64,000 nt of DNA from Eledone cirrhosa (lineage: Eukaryota), in assembly GCA_964016885.1 (NCBI GenBank), contig OZ024741.1, forward strand, positions 241,304,001 to 241,368,000, written 5' to 3'. A program made the translations under genes and the position numbers. Shown here one piece after another: positions 2,368-61,805 of the stretch (its first letter is position 1; the number at the start of each line of letters is the position of its first letter). Under the pieces are notes generated by a model that saw only the letters and a list, made by a program, of their open reading frames with translations, ran no database searches and was not told the origin of the DNA.

Positions 2368-3856
2368 ATATAGGTGCAGGTATGACTCTCTGGCTAAGAA
2401 GGTCACTTTACATGGACTTGGGTTCAGTCTCAATGTGTGAGACCTTGTGCACATGTCTTCCACTGGAGCCTCAGGTTGAGCATTGCCTAGTGAGTGAAAT
2501 TTGGTAAAATGTAATTATAAATACTAAAGTAAGAAATAAAAATATAAATTGATATGTGAATGAGTTTCGAATGAATTTAAAGTTATTAGCTTCTATACTG
2601 TATATACTTAGGTGTGAAAATCCACATGTGACTTATCTACCAAACCTAGGCCTTATATACAGATCAAAGACTGAATGAAGCCCAAATATCATAAACACCC
2701 TGCTATGACATATATGACTATATTGTATTTAACAAAATATAATTAACAAATATATATTTTTTTACAAAAATCCAGACTACTTCGAGAAGGCTTCACTTTA
2801 GGGCCCCAAAGACTATGTTCCTTACTCCTCTTATAAAAGACTTATGGTAAAACACTAAGTCCACTTAGTCAACTAAAATTGGTTAATTTGTCAAAACCCA
2901 AAATAGATTATATGACAATAAATCAGTATGTGTGATACAGAACCAATGAAGAATCAAACAACATTATTCTGTAAAATGGTAGTGCTGGTGCCACAATAAA
3001 ATACACCGAGTATATTTTGTTAAGTGGTTCACAATAGGAAGGGCATTTAGTTATTGAAACTAAACTAGACTGGAACATATGAGAAAGACACAGTTATCTG
3101 ATTTGTCAAGCCTCAAAATGTGATAGCCCATCTAAGCCATGGAAAAAGTGATGATGATAATAATGATGTTGATGGTGACGAAAGCTTGAAACCCAAATCT
3201 GTAGGTCAGAGGTCAACAAAATCCTTTGGAGATTACTCAATTTTGAATTTTTTAATTTTGCCCATGGCCTACATGTAACTTACTTATTATACCTTATATA
3301 TAAAAAGTTTGCGGCTCATGGAGAACACGTCAGTGGTCTACATGTGTTTGTGAGTTCTTATGGATGTTTTATGACTAGTTTTAGATATTGGTTTGTAGCC
3401 ATCTAAGTATTCCACTTTTCAAGGTTTTAGGTGATCTTATCAACCCCAGTACTTAATTCACAGGTATAAATTATTTTAAAGATCTCTCTTTATGGCTAAT
3501 TTACCTTTTGACATGAAGGAATATAACTAAACACATGAGTTTTCACTAGTATACACTCAGACATGCATTGACATAAAGGAACCCAACTATACACACGAGC
3601 TTGCACTACTATACACCCAGATAGGCACATATATCCAGTTTCTGGCTATCAAATTCTTCTCAAGAGGAGTTGCTTAACTTGATACTAGAGTAGAAGACAT
3701 TTTTCTGTGGTGCCATGCACTAGGATTGAACCCTGATTGAACCACCTGAACCCCACAATTACATCTGAAATAAAACCTGGTCTATGTGAGGAAGTGAAGT
3801 ATTAATATTTCACAAACCAGGAAGTTCAGAACAAACCATTCGTCTGTGACATCACT

Positions 3857-4004
3857 GCTGCCATCTGGTGACATTTTCACCAATATCCAACCACTGGACT
3901 GTAACATCGCTGCCCCCTGGTGGTGGATTTTACTGTTCCGAGCAAGCAGCTCAGAGACAATCAACTGAAATAAATCCATCAGCACTTCACTGCCCCCTGG
4001 TGTC
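3857..4004 (-). promoter_or_regulatory. Cluster of three co-oriented CTCF-like motifs
   Basis: gctgccatctggtgac (3857-3872), gctgccccctggtggt (3909-3924), actgccccctggtgtc (3989-4004); reverse complements fit the CTCF core CCASYAGRKGGCR. Confidence 0.6.
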
Positions 4005-12669: not shown

Positions 12670-13096
12670 TGAATTTGTTTTGCAAGATTTCTTATCTGAA
12701 ATCGTGTGTTGAAACAGATATATCTTTTTAGGGTCATGCTGCTGATAAAAACACACACACTTGTTGGTTTTCACTTCAATTTATTATAAATTTCCGGTTG
12801 GTTGGTTTGATAACCGGATGGTTGTTTATATATTGTCAAAGCCCTTTTGTGACACATTCTGTGACCTCAGTGACTGGGTTTTTATTTTGTGCCTTTAATT
12901 TGTTCTGTCCTACACCATCTTGCTGTAGGATAGAACAAAGGAGGTCACAGAATGTGTGACGAAAGGGCTTTGACAATATATAAACAATCACCTGGTTATC
13001 GAACCAATCAACCGAAAATTTGTAATAAATTGAAGTGAAACTCAACAGGTACCTGTGTTTTTATTGGCAGCATGACCCTCCCAAAGTATAACAATA
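12670..13096 (-). mobile_element. Fold-back HHR element family P1, decayed copy (same family as 16334-16916)
   Basis: Inverted arms about 12729-12918 and 12924-13080; one-sided tail on the left; HHR core damaged by deletions in both arms; flanked by (TA)n. Confidence 0.75.
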
Positions 13097-16333: not shown

Positions 16334-16916
16334 TATTGTTATACTTTGGGAGGGTCATGTTGCCAATAAGAAACACACGCACCAGTTGCTTTCACTCCAA
16401 TTTATTATAAATTAAATTATAAATTTAAAAATTTATAAATTTCCGGTTGGTTGGTTGGTTCCACAACCGGACGGTTGTTCATATATTGTCAAAGTTCTTT
16501 AGTCACACATTCTGTGACCTCTTCAGTGACTGGGGATTCTTTTCTTTGTTTTGTGCCTCTCCTTTGTTCTGGCCTACAGCATCTTGTTTTTGTGTGTGTT
16601 CAAAAAACAAGATGGCGTAGGACAGAACAAAGGAGAGGCACAAAACAAAGAAAAGAATACCCAGTCACTGAAGAGGTCACAGAATGTGTGACGAAAGAAC
16701 TTTGACAATATATGAACAACCGTCCGGTTGTGGAACCAACCAACCAACCAGAAATTTATAAATTTTAAAATTTATAATTTAATTTATAATAAATTGGAGT
16801 GAAAGCAACTGGTGCGTTTGTTTCTTATTGGCAACATGACCCTCCCAAAGTATAACAATATCAGTTTCAACACACGTTTTCAGATAAAGAATCTTGCTAA
16901 ACAAATTCAGAAATGA
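16334..16916 (+). mobile_element. Fold-back HHR element family P1: about 260-bp near-perfect inverted arms plus a ~55-bp one-sided tail
   Basis: Arms 16334-~16591 and ~16601-16861; HHR in each arm; flanked by (TA)n. Confidence 0.85.
16664..16706 (+). ncRNA. Minimal type-I hammerhead motif (mirror copy 16488-16530 on minus strand has G12U)
   Basis: guca CUGAAGA g gucaca gaaug ugugac GAAA gaac UU ugac. Confidence 0.65.
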
Positions 16917-17091
16917 TATATATATATACATATATATATATATGGAACTCTTTTAACCATCTTTTGATCTTATATATTATATATATATATATATATATAT
17001 TAGAAAGTGAGGTTTTTTTTACAAAGTGAAAAATAACCGAGGTGTCCTACACGAGTGAAAGTATAAAGAAAAAAAGATTTTATCTTTTTTT

Positions 17092-24693: not shown

Positions 24694-25393
24694 AAAGCTG
24701 GAAAGAAGTGAATCAAGCGTGCTTCATTGGATGTGTAATCTTAGAGTGAATAAATGATGAAGCCTAAATGTGTTGAGAGAAAAACTAGATAGAAGAGGAA
24801 TTAGATGCTGGTACTTACACATAATTCATACAGATGATGATCATTGGGTGAAGATGTATAATGCATTCAAAGTTGAAAGATGTAGTAGAGGTAGGCCAAA
24901 GTAGAATTGGGCAGAGGTGGTGAAAGCTGACCGTGGAATACTAAGCCCCACAAAGGAAATGGTGCAAAATATTTATACACACACACATATCACCTGCATA
25001 TCACACACATACAAATATCACAAACATCACCATTTTTGCATGTTTTTTTCCATGGTTGCATGAATAAGATGAGTTCTCTTCAATATAGGATCCCCCTACT
25101 CGTCTTCTTACTTTGTAATTTTTGCCATTTCCTTTGTGGGGCTTAGTATACCACAGTCAGCTTTCACCACCTCTGCCCACGTCTACTTTGGCCTACCTCG
25201 ACTACATCTTTCAACTTTGAATGCATTATACATCTTCACCCAATGATCATCATCTGTATGAATTATGTGTAAGTACCAGCATATGATTCCTCTTCTATCT
25301 AGTTTTTCTCTCAACACATTTGGGCTTCATCATTTATTCACTCTAAGCTTACACATCCAATGAAGCACGCTTGATTCACTTCTTTCCAGCTTT
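24694..25393. mobile_element. Decayed RTE-type LINE 3' fragment present as an inverted duplication (arms 24694-24962 and 25125-25393)
   Basis: 'KLERSESSVLHWMCN..LREKL..RGIRC' homologous to the 55361 ORF; the two arms are near-identical reverse complements. Confidence 0.85.
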
Positions 25394-33803: not shown

Positions 33804-34702
33804 GTATATATGACAGTATATCTGTATATGTAGGAATACAGGCATAACAGACATACTGAGACATGTGTATGTGCATGTGTATATATGCATGCATATATGT
33901 ATATATATATATATGTATGTATGTATACTTATATGTGCTTATATATGTGTGTGTATGTATATATTGTATATATGCATATCATCATTATCATCATCATCAT
34001 CGTTTAACGGCCCTGTTCCACGCTTGCATGGGTTTGGATGGGAGTTTTCCCACTTGAGGCAAGAGTGGTTGTCTTGCTCGCATAGGACTGTCTGGCGGGT
34101 TTTCTACAGCTGGATGCCCTTCCTAACACCAACCACGTTTACAGTGTCGGGCTGGGAGGTTTTTACCGTGTTGCCTACACGGCCACATTACAGCGTGGAC
34201 ACGGCCACATTACAGCGATGATATATATATCATATGATATATATATATCATAATCATCATCATCATCATCATCATCATTATCATCATATATATATATATA
34301 TATATATGGGTGTATTTGTGTATATATATATCACCTTGACCACCTTGACCGACCAGTCTGTCGGGCGCCAATCGGCGCCGCTGGTCACAGCACGTCGTGC
34401 TCTTTTAGCCATAAGATAACGCCATCCCACTGGCTGGGTGGGCAGGCCGGTACTCATTTCTACAGCTGAGTATACATACTACTGTAGGTCTGTATACATA
34501 TGTATGTATGTATACATACTTATATTAAAGTAACAGCCGTACTAAAAGTGAGAAATGAAATTTGGTTTCATTTTTTCTGTTTATCGTTTTCGGTGTGCCC
34601 GGCCGATTAACTCACTCGATATGCAAATTAGGCTGCTAAGCCGTTAATATGCATAAGGAAAGTATATACTTTCAGACGTTCAATCATCTGGAAGGAAGGT
34701 AT

Positions 34703-34745
34703 ACGGTGCTGATGATAGCTAATAAGCTTGAAACTAGTACATCGT
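34703..34745 (+). ncRNA. Minimal type-I hammerhead ribozyme, unit 1
   Basis: acggug CUGAUGA u agc uaauaa gcu u GAAA cuag UA caucgu. Confidence 0.8.
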
Positions 34746-35078
34746 TCCTTTGTCAGTGTTGAACAAAAGGGCAATGATGGTTGCTAAAGACTGTACGGCT
34801 TAATACGGGCTGTTTGTTTACAAACACACCAAGCATTATAATAAATGTTCGGTAAATCCATACGTACATATATATATGTGTGCATGTATACATACTACTG
34901 TACGTCTATATACATATATGTATGTACATATACATACTTATATATATCGTTTCATTTTTTCCGTTTATCGTTTTCGGTGCACCCGGCCGATTAACCCACT
35001 CGATATGCAAATTGGGCTACTCAGCCGTTAATATGCATAAGGTAAGTATATACGTTCAACAATCTGGCAGGAAGGTAT

Positions 35079-35121
35079 ACGTTGCTGACGATAGCTAACA
35101 AGCTTGAAACTAGTACAGCGT
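35079..35121 (+). ncRNA. Minimal type-I hammerhead ribozyme, unit 2
   Basis: acguug CUGACGA u agc uaacaa gcu u GAAA cuag UA cagcgu. Confidence 0.8.
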
Positions 35122-35500
35122 TCCTTTGTCAGTGTTGAACAAACGAGCAACGGTGGTTGCTAGACACTACGGCTTAATACGGGATGTTTGTTTACAAACA
35201 CACCGAGCATTATAATAAATGTTCGGTGAATCCATACGTGCATATATATATGTGTGCATGTATGTATATATATATATACATACTACTGTACGTCGGTATA
35301 CATATATGTATGTACGTGTACATACTTATATTTAAGTAACAGCCGTACTAAGAGTGGGAAATGAAATATCGTTTCATTTTTTCCGTTTATCGTTTTCGGT
35401 GCACCCGGCCGATTAACCCACTCGATATGCAAATTGGGCTACTCAGCCGTTAATATGCATAAGGTAAGTATATACGTTCAACAATCTGGCAGGAAGGTAT

Positions 35501-35543
35501 ACGTTGCTGACGATAGCTAACAAGCTTGAAACTAGTACAGCGT
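35501..35543 (+). ncRNA. Minimal type-I hammerhead ribozyme, unit 3
   Basis: Identical to the unit 2 motif. Confidence 0.8.
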
Positions 35544-35806
35544 TCCTTTGTCAGTGTTGAACAAACGAGCAACGGTGGTTGCTAGACACTACGGCTTAAT
35601 ACGGGATGTTTGTTTACAAACACACCGAGCATTATAATAAATGTTCGGTGAATCCATACGTGCATATATATATGTGTGCATGTATGTATATATATATATA
35701 CATACTACTGTACGTCGGTATACATATATGTATGTACGTGTACATACTTATATTTAAGTAACAGCCGTACTAAGAGTGGGAAATGAAATATTGTTTCATT
35801 TTTTCC

Positions 35807-36847: not shown

Positions 36848-37212
36848 TACAATGATATTAAATAAATGGAAACTATATTTATAAAACCATATTTATTCTA
36901 TTATATATATTTCAAGGGTACCAAAATTTTGGTACGCTATCATCAGATAAAATACGAAGTGTGTTTTATAAATTTTGACATAATTTATAATCAAAATTTA
37001 TAAAATTCACTTCGTATTTTATCTGATGATAGCGTAACAAAATTTTGGTACCCTTGAAATATATATAATAGAATAAGTATGGTTTTATAAATATAGTTTC
37101 CATTTATTTAATATCATTGTATATTATACTCCAGAAAACTGTAGAGTGCTTAGAATCAGTTATAAACATTTATATTTGTTGAATTACCAACAAATTGAAT
37201 ATCCCTTCTGCT
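36848..37212 (+). mobile_element. Fold-back HHR element family P2 (arms 36848-37121, tail 37122-37212)
   Basis: About 135-bp near-perfect inverted arms; tail 'tatactccagaaaactgtagagtgc'; flanked by (TA)n. Confidence 0.85.
37015..37075 (+). ncRNA. Type-I hammerhead (mirror copy 36894-36954 on minus strand)
   Basis: uauuuuau CUGAUGA u agcgua(a/c)c aaaauuuu gguacccu u GAAA uauaua UA auagaaua. Confidence 0.7.
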
Positions 37213-56485: not shown

Positions 56486-56887
56486 ATATATATATATATA
56501 TATAAAGGAGAACAAACTGTTAAAACATGTTTATTTAAAACAGCACCTACATACGTTTTGCCCGAAAAGGGGTTCTCAAGGGCATAAAAAACTAAAGAGT
56601 ATTCCTTACGTGACCCAGAAGGGGTTTTAAAGATAAATTCACATCACAGTTCATTCTTCGTAAAGCACATTTATTGTTTTTTCAGTAGATCAGGGCAGAT
56701 AACTCTAGCCGGTGTTAGAGTAGTGTTCCCCAAGCTATTTGTTACCCGTTACTACTTTGTGGGTACTGCTTTACCTTTGTCGATTCCCGCCGGGTCTGGG
56801 ATGCATGGTTGGTTTCCAGATGTTTATTTGCAGCGCCTGCCCACTGGGGTGTTAAGGTTTGGTGCTGGGAGACCCAGTTTATGGTTT

Positions 56888-59386
56888 TCATGCCTCATTC
56901 TTATTCCATCTGGAGTAAGGCCTCTTTATACGGTGCCTGCAGTTTATCACTGATTCTGCTCTGCTGTTGATGAGCTCAGGGGGTGCCGTTATGATATGAT
57001 AAAGCTCCATGAGACAAAGCTCGCACTTCCTCTTGAAATTGTACAGTGCTGCTCTGCCGACAATTTCCCAGTGTATGGAGAAGATGATGTTTGAGTCTTT
57101 TAATGCTGTGATGTAATTGGCAAGCAAAGTGGAGTGTCTTAGTTTTTTGTTTGTGAAAGAGTGGAGATGTGTTTGAAATATATTTTTGAACGGGCCAGAG
57201 GTGGCCCCTATATAATGCTTAACGCTATTATGGCTAGTTATGGTGCACCTATAAATAACCTTATCTGTCAGGCAATTTCCCCTAAGGGGGCAGCGTCCCC
57301 TGTCATGACAGTTGCATTTTCGGTCTCAGTCACTACTAGTTCCCGAGGTGAGGCAATTATTATTGCTATCAATGTTGTAACATATGCCTCTATCCCTGTC
57401 GTTAGTACTATTATATCCCACAGCATGTGGGAAGTTCTTCTCTAAAGCTTCAAAGAATATCCGGGGTATGTTGGAGGCCATACTCTGCGAGTAGGGAGGA
57501 TGGAACCATAGGACGTTACGATGGCGGTTCCGTGTATTATTAGGTTTGCTATGGTTCCGTGTATTAGTAGGTTTTCAAGGTGACCGTTCTTATGCATGTT
57601 ATTGTACTGTAGTCAGTTATGTGTCTCTTTCGCTTTATGCTCGGGTGCACTCGGCTTCCTTCTGCTCCATTTAGTAAGATGCTGGTTGGAAGGCATTGGT
57701 AGTAGGCCATCGCCATTGCTGATCTTATAGTAGGAGAATAATTCTTGTAGGCTACAGTGGTCACCGTCACCAGTGTCGTGATCTTTATTGTGCAGTCGGT
57801 TTTCTACACCATCACTCGTGTAATTAACGTGGCGGCTGTGTTCCTTAGTGCGATTCTCTATACTATAGTTCCTGACTCTGTCTAAGCCGCTGCATGCTCA
57901 GTTATAGGTATGGCTTACTATAACATTAGTCTTATGAGGTTTCTAGCGTTAGGGATGTAAGAGATTCTTCGGTTAAATCCGACACTTAGCAAGGCCTTAT
58001 TGTAGTATTCTGCCGCTTGGTTGAAGATATCCTCGTTAGCGGAGAGCTTCGAGATACTATGTGAGATGCTATAGACTATGAAGTTGAGAGTAGGCTTAGG
58101 GTGGTTTGAGGTATAATTAATATAAGATAGAATCTCTCCGGGCTTATGGTATGGCTTGTATAGGCCCATACTCAACTCCAAGGTCACATCAAGGAAGTTG
58201 ACAACCTGGTGGTTGAGGTCCATAGTTACGGATAGGCCGTATGACTTGAAGAACCTGTGTATGTGCTTGTTAAGGTTCTCTATCCTGTGGGGGCTATGGT
58301 TCCTAATCGTAAACAGGGCATCGTCCCTATATACACCTCCTTGTAGGGCCGGTATCTCTTCCCTAAGTCTATGGAGGAGGTATATTCCGACCAGGTCAGT
58401 TGCTTGCGCTGAGTCACTGGACCCCATCATGACATCAAAGTTATCAGGATGGTTGGTTCTGGTGCAGTGGGAGCCTTCGAACTGGATAATGGTTCTACGC
58501 GCCGCTAGTACTATATCTATCTCTTTTTTAGTGAGGCTAGTGTTAGACTTAGCTAAGATGAGTGCCTTATTTAAGAGTATGGGAGAGATAGAGGCGTAGT
58601 AACTATCTATGTCAAACTAGATGAACTTCAGGGTCGCTTTATCAGGCAACTCGGTGAACCAATTTACGACCTGGTCGGTGTTGCTCCAGAGGCAGAACTT
58701 AGCCTTTCTATTAAGCTCCAGTAGTACTCTATCGAGGATCACTTTACTATATATATCTTACCTATATCAGATGTAGAGCGACATATAAGTCTAATAGAGG
58801 GGATTTCATTAAAGTTACATTTGTGATCCTTAAGAGAGAATCTAGGCGTCAGAGGGACATATGGGTTTGTGTACTTATCTATTTCTAAGCTAATAGCTAT
58901 ATCCTTCCCTACTCTATTTATGTCATTTAAGGTACTAATGGGTGTCTTTTTATAGTCTTTGTGTAGTTCTTTATAGATGAATTGTTTATACTTGCTCACG
59001 CCCATCTTAAACAGCTTCTTGATCTTGTCAGAGGTAACGAAGAGGTGTGGGTCATTCTTGATCTTGGTGATGAGTGCATCCAGGGATGTTAAGAATGGAT
59101 TACTGCATCAGTGTTTATTCTTGAACTTAATGTTTCTGATCAGTTTCAGCAAGTCCTCCTCGAAGGAGTCCAGTAAGGTGTTGTGCGGTGGGTTTCGGTA
59201 TGTTTTGCAGCCGTACCTCTCTTTAGGTTTTGGAAAGTTACGGGTGTCCTTATCTAGGTGGTAGGCCTTCCATCTTACTCTCCGTATAAATGAGTTGGTA
59301 GCATCTATAAGTTGTTTGAGGTAAGTTTTTCTGCTGGGTAAGGGGATACACTTGAGAGACATGGGTAACGGCTGATTCTCCAACAT
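56888..59386 (-). pseudogene. PLE RT + GIY-YIG endonuclease ORF, disrupted
   Basis: In-frame TGA at 59108-59110, frameshift in a TA run near 58750, TAG at about 58616-58618, further stops in the RT-EN linker. Confidence 0.85.
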
Positions 59387-59640
59387 GATGGCAAATAAAG
59401 TGGAGTGCTCTACAAGAGGAGCACGGTAATAGAGTATTTAAGTATCGAGAGAGAGAAAAAGAGATAGGCGATACATATAGTTATTTGCCAATAGCATATA
59501 CAAATGTGCTCAATACTTGTGCTTGCAGTGTTAAATATTGGAAGTGTTAATATCTCACGGGCGAGAAAATAAGCAGAGCGGATATACATGAAAAAATATA
59601 TAAAGGAGAACAAACCGCTAAAACATGTTTATTTAAAACA

Positions 59641-59681
59641 GCACCTACATAAGTTTTGCCCGATAAGGGCTTCTCAAGGGC
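59641..59681 (-). ncRNA. Core-variant hammerhead-like motif in PLE terminal repeat (second copy 56543-56583)
   Basis: gccc UUGAGAA gccc uuauc gggc AAAA cuuaug UA gg(u)gc, i.e. C3U/G8A plus G12A. Confidence 0.55.
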
Positions 59682-59759
59682 ATAAAAAAACTAAAGAGTG
59701 TTCCTTACGTGACCCAGAAGGGGTTTTAAAGATAAATTCACATTACAGTTCATTCTTCA

Positions 59760-59803
<44 letters not shown>

Positions 59804-61114: not shown

Positions 61115-61144
<30 letters not shown>

Positions 61145-61147
<3 letters not shown>

Positions 61148-61570
61148 ATATAAGATCAAAAGATGGTTAAAGGAGTTCCATGTATTTTATTATGCGCATT
61201 TCAAAAACAAACATCATCATGCAATAATATTTGTGTTTTCATCAGATAAAACAGGAGAACATGATATGAAGGCTAAAAAACACTTGTGGATAGTGCAGTT
61301 TTAAATCAACATATATGATATGTTGATTTAAAACTGCACTATCCACAAGTGTTTTTTAGCCTTCATATCATGTTCTCCTGTTTTATCTGATGAAAACACA
61401 AATATTATTGCATGATGATGTTTGTTTTTGAAATGCGCATAATAAAATACATGGAACTCCTTTAACCATCTTTTGATCTTATATTATGTATACTCCAGTC
61501 CTACAAACTGTAGAGTGCTTCTTATCCGATATCTGCATTGCTTTATTGTACTACAATAAAACTCACCTCC
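61145..61570 (+). mobile_element. Fold-back HHR element: apparently perfect 170-bp arms with 3-nt loop (61145-61487) plus tail
   Basis: Tail 'tatactccagtcctacaaactgtagagtgc' similar to the 37122 tail, with AATAAA near 61555; a fragment of the same family lies at about 16943-16980. Confidence 0.9.
61379..61449 (+). ncRNA. Type-I hammerhead (mirror copy 61183-61253 on minus strand)
   Basis: uguuuuau CUGAUGA [aaacacaaauau..auguuuguuuuu] GAAA ugcgca UA auaaaaua. Confidence 0.8.
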
Positions 61571-61591
61571 TACATATATATATATATATAT

Positions 61592-61805
61592 ATATTCATT
61601 TTATTAAGACTAAATAGTGTCTTGTTACTCTGGGGTTTTGCCTGTTTATCACAGGGTCATCTGACAAGAACAATTCTTGTCTGATTACTCTGTGATAAAC
61701 AGGCAAAACTCCAGAGTAACAAGACTCACTTTTTAGCTTTAATAAAATGAATATCAAAACTCTACTTCAGTATTGAGTACTCTTTTCTCTCAGCCATCAA
61801 TAGCA
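61592..61805 (+). mobile_element. Older fold-back element with degenerate HHR in both arms
   Basis: Arms 61592-61754; two-arm consensus ucuugu CUGAUGA c ccugu gauaa acagg c (G>A)AAA cuccagag UA acaaga; tail 'tacttcagtattgagtac'. Confidence 0.65.

Follow-up and report, generated by a model that had tools for sequence, protein, structure and literature searches.

The palindrome at position 61145 of the window, which is the whole 64,000-nt stretch of Eledone cirrhosa DNA that was analyzed, is almost certainly an insertion of an abundant Penelope-like element (PLE) of the Hydra clade, the family being assigned by motif description. It is the short end of a 0.2-6 kb continuum of head-to-head insertions and not a separate class. 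Such insertions were probably generated by double priming on one capped sense RNA, from which both cDNAs ran off before being joined. After cleavage of a (TA)n target, each DNA strand would prime reverse transcription on that single RNA, starting from one of two fixed positions separated by 88 nt; both cDNAs would run off the first base of the RNA and then be joined end to end. A protein dimer may perform the double priming. The evidence comes from the genomic copies, which display two fixed 3' ends, one per side, a continuum of lengths, a pile-up of 5' ends with an extra G, and junctions that vary.

The 343-bp palindrome, described as apparently perfect in the first-pass annotation, was present in the assembly, with arms identical at 170 of 170 positions on either side of a 3-nt unpaired spacer (Table 1). 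The whole element measured 431 bases. The one-sided tail was also confirmed, but its length was 88 nt rather than about 80 bp, and it ended at 61575, slightly beyond the annotated 61570. (TA)n was found on either side, as annotated. Across the 64-kb window, a strict scan for type I hammerheads yielded exactly two matches (+61387 and -61245), both pointing outward, in agreement with the earlier reading of an intact ribozyme on each strand; the shuffle control gave two matches in total in 20 shuffles. An Rfam search returned no hammerhead among the matches listed (150 of 228), only chance miRNA hairpins below the gathering scores.

Table 1. Features of the 61145 element and related motifs in the window (r, position in the long copy L031)
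Feature	Position	Strand	Remarks
Left (TA)n target microsatellite	61130..61147	.	(TA)n flanks nearly all tabulated copies of the family
Untailed arm	61145..61314	-	Equals r5290-5459 of L031, putative transcription start to inner RT start site
Type I hammerhead, minus-strand copy	61183..61253	-	Predicted cut after 61191
Head-to-head junction	61315..61317	.	3 nt absent from L031; G at 61317 belongs to the window's plus arm and is a candidate copy of the RNA cap
Tailed arm, shared part	61318..61487	+	Equals r5290-5459 of L031; 61318 is the 5'-end pile-up point and putative transcription start
Type I hammerhead, plus copy	61379..61449	+	Core 61387-61393, GAAA 61430-61433
Stem III of plus hammerhead	61433-61440	+	Self-complementary; predicted cut after 61441
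Tail	61488..61575	+	r5460-5547, spanning the interval from one fixed 3' end to the other; predicted stem-loop at its start
Right (TA)n target microsatellite	61574..61595	.	Doubles as left flank of the neighboring palindrome at 61592
ACTC...GAGT(A/G)C tail motif	61490-61520		Family 61145
ACTC...GAGT(A/G)C tail motif	37122-37155		Family 36848
ACTC...GAGT(A/G)C tail motif	46605-46635		Family 46481
ACTC...GAGT(A/G)C tail motif	61757-61785		Family 61592

An exact search with the hammerhead 34-mer gave 8,168 matches in the 3.0-Gb genome (4,097 forward and 4,071 reverse) and 0 with the control. Among the first 100 of these 8,168 matches listed, neighboring hammerheads within 8 kb formed 31 outward (-/+) pairs and no +/- pair, and the outward pairs were spaced 110 bp to 6 kb apart (16 pairs below 300 bp and 15 pairs of 1-6 kb). 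Loci around matches to the hammerhead and to a second pattern were fetched and mapped on a natural long copy, L031. The long pairs held an 800-aa ORF (L031:1892-4291) with YRDD and IYEC..YFGST motifs. Pfam and PDB searches with the ORF itself returned no match; 33 homologues were found, one of which had a weak Pfam match to GIY-YIG (E 0.012). Alignment with the homologues revealed DKT and YRDD, a CxCX5C linker, a GIY-YIG-like motif lacking the CCHH cysteines, and a terminal CxxC and CxH that stand around a conserved C-terminal E and N. The L031 ORF carried RWT, and homologues carried RWK and RWR. An Asn/Thr/Pro-rich insert of about 70 aa lay between the RT thumb and the linker (L031 about 3600-3860); it was missing from most homologues and is reminiscent of N-rich inserts in the Penelope ORFs of rotifers. 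The element unit was about 3.7 kb, with a 1-kb 3' UTR.

The features expected of an EN+ PLE were found together in this family: one ORF in the long copies combined RT motifs with C-terminal motifs of GIY-YIG type, the pLTR or partial tandem was accompanied by an inverted 5'-truncated copy with a tail at one end, and the pLTR contained a hammerhead. DKT, CxCX5C, the missing CCHH, CxxC/CxH, and insertion into (TA)n agreed with the written description of the Hydra clade. The hammerhead core and stem III were kept in 201 of 227 arms, a sample partly selected on the core. The earlier view of the short palindromes as ORF-less PLE products was upheld, and so was the link to PLE termini, which it had named as a test; long copies carry the 800-aa ORF with RT and GIY-YIG-type motifs. 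The proposal of a distinct class of fold-back elements was not sustained, since lengths ran without a break to those of copies that contain the ORF, and a stretch of about 156 bp in the arms of the window's element was identical to arms of long copies. Two other identities were rejected: a non-LTR retrozyme, because the hammerhead pair is inverted and does not form direct tandem repeats, and a MITE or fold-back DNA transposon, because the centers vary, the ends are asymmetric, and the lengths are continuous.

The anatomy of the insertions was analyzed in 140 loci and the window, which were grouped into 95 clusters; the sample was drawn from roughly the initial 95 Mb of a single contig, and the exact search patterns favor young copies. 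Seventy clusters were simple head-to-head insertions, 23 had a single orientation (some cut by the fetched stretch), and two were double. Outer ends lay at two fixed places, r5456-5464 for the untailed and r5547 for the tailed end. One end of each kind was found in 65 of the 70 head-to-head insertions; of the others, 1/70 had two untailed ends, 0/70 had two tails, and 4/70 had one end that was not placed. In tandem copies (L045, L046, L047, L060, L061, and L117), the tail end continued into the 5' UTR and the start of the ORF, which identifies the tail as a 5' segment of the RNA bounded by two RT start sites.

The reach of the two arms was compared in 63 of the 65 tailed/untailed insertions, two with internal tandems having been dropped. 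The untailed arm had the greater 5' reach in 34 and the tailed arm in 9; in the other 20, the two ended no more than 10 nt apart. In the 34, the untailed arm was longer at its 5' end yet had no tail, so neither arm is a DNA copy of the other, and simple fold-back copying cannot produce insertions in which each arm holds private sequence. The tailed arm was cut inside the tail in 5 of these 34, a form favored by the search patterns. The nine insertions with a longer tailed arm run counter to a strict model in which one cDNA follows behind the other on one RNA. Arm-to-arm differences had a median of 1 base within an insertion versus 6 between insertions (76 pairs). We infer that both arms came from one RNA molecule; near-identical arms are as expected from one source RNA, and gene conversion between inverted arms could contribute. 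Arm lengths were not significantly correlated in the 20 insertions with both arms past the start (rho 0.21, p 0.37).

The 5' ends of the arms piled up at r5286-5293 (window 61318/61314), where 46 of 126 ends were located, after 5' ends overrun by BLAST to r5275-5277 had been reset to r5290. Both arms ended there in 17 and one arm in 12 of the 63 insertions, and because the partner ended elsewhere in those 12, the stop is a property of the arm rather than of a fold-back site. Exact arm starts numbered 6,528 across the genome, of which 2,441 had the exact upstream (read-through) context of long copies and 1,273 were preceded by G. As many G's at arm-arm junctions were ambiguous, arms abutting (AT)5 out of phase were tested. 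The intervening base was G in 66, A in 8, C in 2, and T in 2 of 78 arms, against a background of 6 G in 212 interruptions of the same kind. In the in-phase (TA)5 context, G was not dominant (19 G, 25 C); C is there the templated base and a frequent repeat variant. In L1, an untemplated 5' G has been read as a copy of the cap (PMC9341517). The r5290 pile-up would, by this sequence pattern, mark a capped transcription start. Many arms and several tandems read through it, so longer templates must also exist. At G000:C1:199896443-199896499, two head-to-head arms were observed with a G before each and, apparently, a short (TA)n run between them. A CACTATCC motif, possibly a promoter element, was located near the pile-up in the 61145 family and also in the 36848 family (window 61334-61342; loci L211-L290).

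The centers of the palindromes differed between copies: some were overlaps of 4 bp or 2 bp, others were fills of 1-6 nt, and reiterated fills also occurred. The pile-up was located on a 6-bp palindrome, and the 4-bp-overlap junction was the commonest center (92 sampled starts). These two observations would suit an inverted arm produced when a single cDNA, or an antisense template, primes itself or folds back, as would the near identity of the arms within an insertion and the 20 of 63 insertions with ends no more than 10 nt apart; self-priming has been proposed for Penelope in rotifers (PMC3846280). We nevertheless consider this origin unlikely. It conflicts with the 34/63 insertions in which each arm holds sequence missing from the other and with the 12 in which one arm sits at the pile-up and its partner elsewhere, and single arms that also start at the pile-up beside (TA)n with the extra G are not explained by an antisense template.

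Every common variant of the long copies was also present in short arms, at mildly shifted frequencies, and no variant was private to short arms; 48 of 140 arms were identical to an arm of a read-through copy, and the window's arms were identical to arms of at least 12 such copies. Since the centers vary and the short arms carry long-copy variants, the palindrome was built anew at each insertion, and because junction sequences differ from copy to copy, it was not copied as a unit. These data weigh against a self-propagating, non-autonomous family of short palindromes that are transcribed and copied in trans. Copying in trans is conceivable because the start site and the two priming sites all lie in the tailed arm; short insertions amounted to 35 of the 63 simple insertions, and three of eight variable columns were mildly enriched in short arms (uncorrected p 0.005-0.015). 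Given the differing junctions, the lack of a private variant, and the 48/140 identical arms, we regard such a family as distinctly unlikely.

That the palindromes are assembly artefacts is hardly credible. Their presence in reads, proposed earlier as a check, was observed at the level of the family: no read or contig spanned the 61145 locus, but read-derived contigs (possibly from the assembly's own sample) contained head-to-head joints, which lay at many positions and frequently had the pile-up on one side, and reverse-complement element sequence was found as loose ends in the raw reads of a second study. The strict asymmetry of tailed and untailed ends, the diverse junctions, and the divergence between arms in older copies (251/259 and 71/78) likewise argue against an artefact.

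The first-pass annotation had suggested that the hairpin masks the ribozyme in both orientations and is therefore tolerated in introns. The structural part is supported by folding: the probability of stem I was 0.00 in the full element versus 0.72 in the isolated motif, and the 170-bp hairpin was predicted to win on either strand, by about 103 kcal/mol over the hammerhead with approximate constraints. siRNAs from inverted Penelope regions in flies (PMC3681739) are also in line with it. As a reason for tolerance, masking is doubtful, and that the hairpin was selected for this effect is very improbable. The head-to-head geometry is the default product at all lengths, stem I was already disfavored in the 258-nt sense (single-arm) RNA (0.04), and window fold-backs without a hammerhead exist (53873, 24694). 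Single-armed clusters with an unmasked hammerhead were common (23/95, some cut by the fetched stretch). Stem III of the 61145-family hammerhead is a short self-complementary 8-mer, that is, minimal and palindromic; hammerheads of this type are reported to need a dimer, and their monomers to be inactive in vitro (PMC4209133). The masking effect is probably a by-product. The geometry of double priming would yield the hairpin as well as the outward hammerheads and the one-sided tail, so that no function of their own is needed.

Arm 5' ends did not gather at the hammerhead cut site (3/99 within about 10 nt), a result that speaks further against selection for masking and for which cleavage was rejected as the source of these ends; PLE templates would thus have been uncut. 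A search for host exons gave 0 Pfam matches in 95 frames, which is a weak test. Extrapolated from the 16 short pairs among the first 100 of 8,168 matches, the family implies about a thousand or more near-perfect hairpins of 100-250 bp, a likely source of dsRNA if transcribed; dsRNA from inverted Penelope copies has been reported in flies (PMC3681739).

The same architecture with largely unrelated sequences had been annotated at 12670, 16334, 36848, 46481, and 61592. Fold-backs were present at these sites, but 12670 and 16334 were a single family with the same tail, and most cores were incomplete. Among the named sites, both catalytic cores were found only at 61145 and 36848, the latter of which failed the strict stem test. 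One intact core was present at 16334 and none at 12670; the 46481 element was cut inside stem I, with one core lost, and the 61592 element had decayed cores, intact GAAA versions of its family being found elsewhere in the genome. Hydra-type ORF pieces were detected in 2 of 5 longer pairs fetched for the 36848 family, and the long pairs of the 16334 family contained a different PLE ORF with a CX4CxxC linker, of Neptune/Nematis type by motif (4/8). Since the ORF types differ between the 61145 and 36848 long pairs and those of 16334, the head-to-head architecture is, judged by these motifs, common to at least three PLE families of two clades in this genome. The link of the 61592 family to PLEs is weak, because a Hydra-type ORF piece lay in a compatible position at only 1 of 30 loci. 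The tails of four otherwise unrelated families opened with one ACTC...GAGT(A/G)C stem-loop motif, just past the untailed end, and this stem-loop is a candidate signal for positioning the RT.

Several further repeats were observed. A second, broken Hydra-type PLE occupied 56505-59760 on the minus strand of the window, with two direct pLTRs and (TA)n flanks; its ORF pieces were 33-47% identical to the L031 protein, and its 5' pLTR started at a hammerhead core and continued into a tail-like stem-loop. At 34700-35790, units of about 400 bp, with a hammerhead core and a short stem II in each, were arranged as a direct tandem that looks like a non-LTR retrozyme array. An abundant SINE-like repeat, with more than 10 window copies, formed the fold-back at 53873-54004, which had no hammerhead; the fold-back at 24694-25393 had inverted arms of 278 bp, 95% complementary and 144 nt apart, and no hammerhead core in these arms. 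A 48-bp stub (16938-16985) adjoined the 16334 element; it belongs to the 61145 family, on the downstream side of the hammerhead cut. At another locus, L300 1409-1893 (G000:C2:310.21 Mb), the 61592-family arm was present as three direct 173-bp repeats, a retrozyme-like pLTR form.

The inverted truncated copy, the one-sided tail, the (TA)n bias, and the hammerheads on both strands are published features of PLEs (PMC8557442; PMC3846280), and the origin of the inverted repeats and one-sided tails is named as unsettled in PMC8557442. The architecture is therefore already known, and what the copies add is the mechanism. We lean, by a modest degree, toward reading the palindromes as a twin run-off record, in which a dimeric RT-endonuclease, its two sites set by the conserved tail stem-loop, would have copied an uncut hammerhead up to the cap. 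If true, one step would explain both why PLEs form a head-to-head repeat and why their tail is one-sided, and it would replace antisense self-priming. In the literature covered, mostly papers available without subscription, neither double priming that ends in run-off at a capped start nor a cap-derived G was found described for PLEs. A young, high-copy family of this kind is a large natural record of the PLE integration reaction, and exact predictions follow for the start base, the two priming sites, and a 258-nt minimal template.

In the twin priming of L1, which Ostertag and Kazazian are said to have described in 2001, two target ends reportedly prime on one RNA and yield an inverted 5' part, the second primer acting at variable internal sites and leaving pieces without overlap. 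Unlike in L1, priming in the 61145 family would occur at fixed sites 88 nt apart, and the arms therefore copy the same sequence.

The closest known elements are those of the Hydra clade (Craig et al., 2021, PMC8557442), such as Penelope-13_HM and Hydra-1_Obim, which are described there with the same DKT, CxCX5C linker, missing CCHH, CxxC/CxH around the C-terminal E and N, hammerhead, and (TA)n targeting. For Penelope-13_HM, the supplement of that paper reports an inverted 5'-truncated copy with the same hammerhead on both strands. Compared by description, the present family differs in having RWT for RWK, a unit of about 3.7 kb versus usually less than 3 kb, a 1-kb 3' UTR, the Asn-rich insert, a tail of 88 nt and not 30-40, and thousands of copies.

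The Poseidon PLE PAc of Anolis carolinensis (Frangieh et al., 2024, PMC11167929) belongs to a different clade but has the same two internal RT starts bounding a tail, and likewise an AT-rich target, extension of both strands, and an uncleaved RNA template. Its protein, a predicted dimer, cuts and extends both strands in vitro; the head-to-head junction and run-off at the RNA 5' end are not treated in the available parts of that report. Penelope of Adineta vaga (Arkhipova et al., 2013, PMC3846280) has the same inverted pLTR, optional tail at one end, and palindromes at the junction; self-priming on an antisense template was inferred there, whereas the copy statistics presented here favor double priming on sense RNA. 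Non-LTR retrozymes (bioRxiv 10.64898/2026.07.22.740005) are likewise ORF-less, carry a type I hammerhead, and are derived from PLE pLTRs, but they are described as direct tandem repeats, whereas the 61145 element is an inverted pair.
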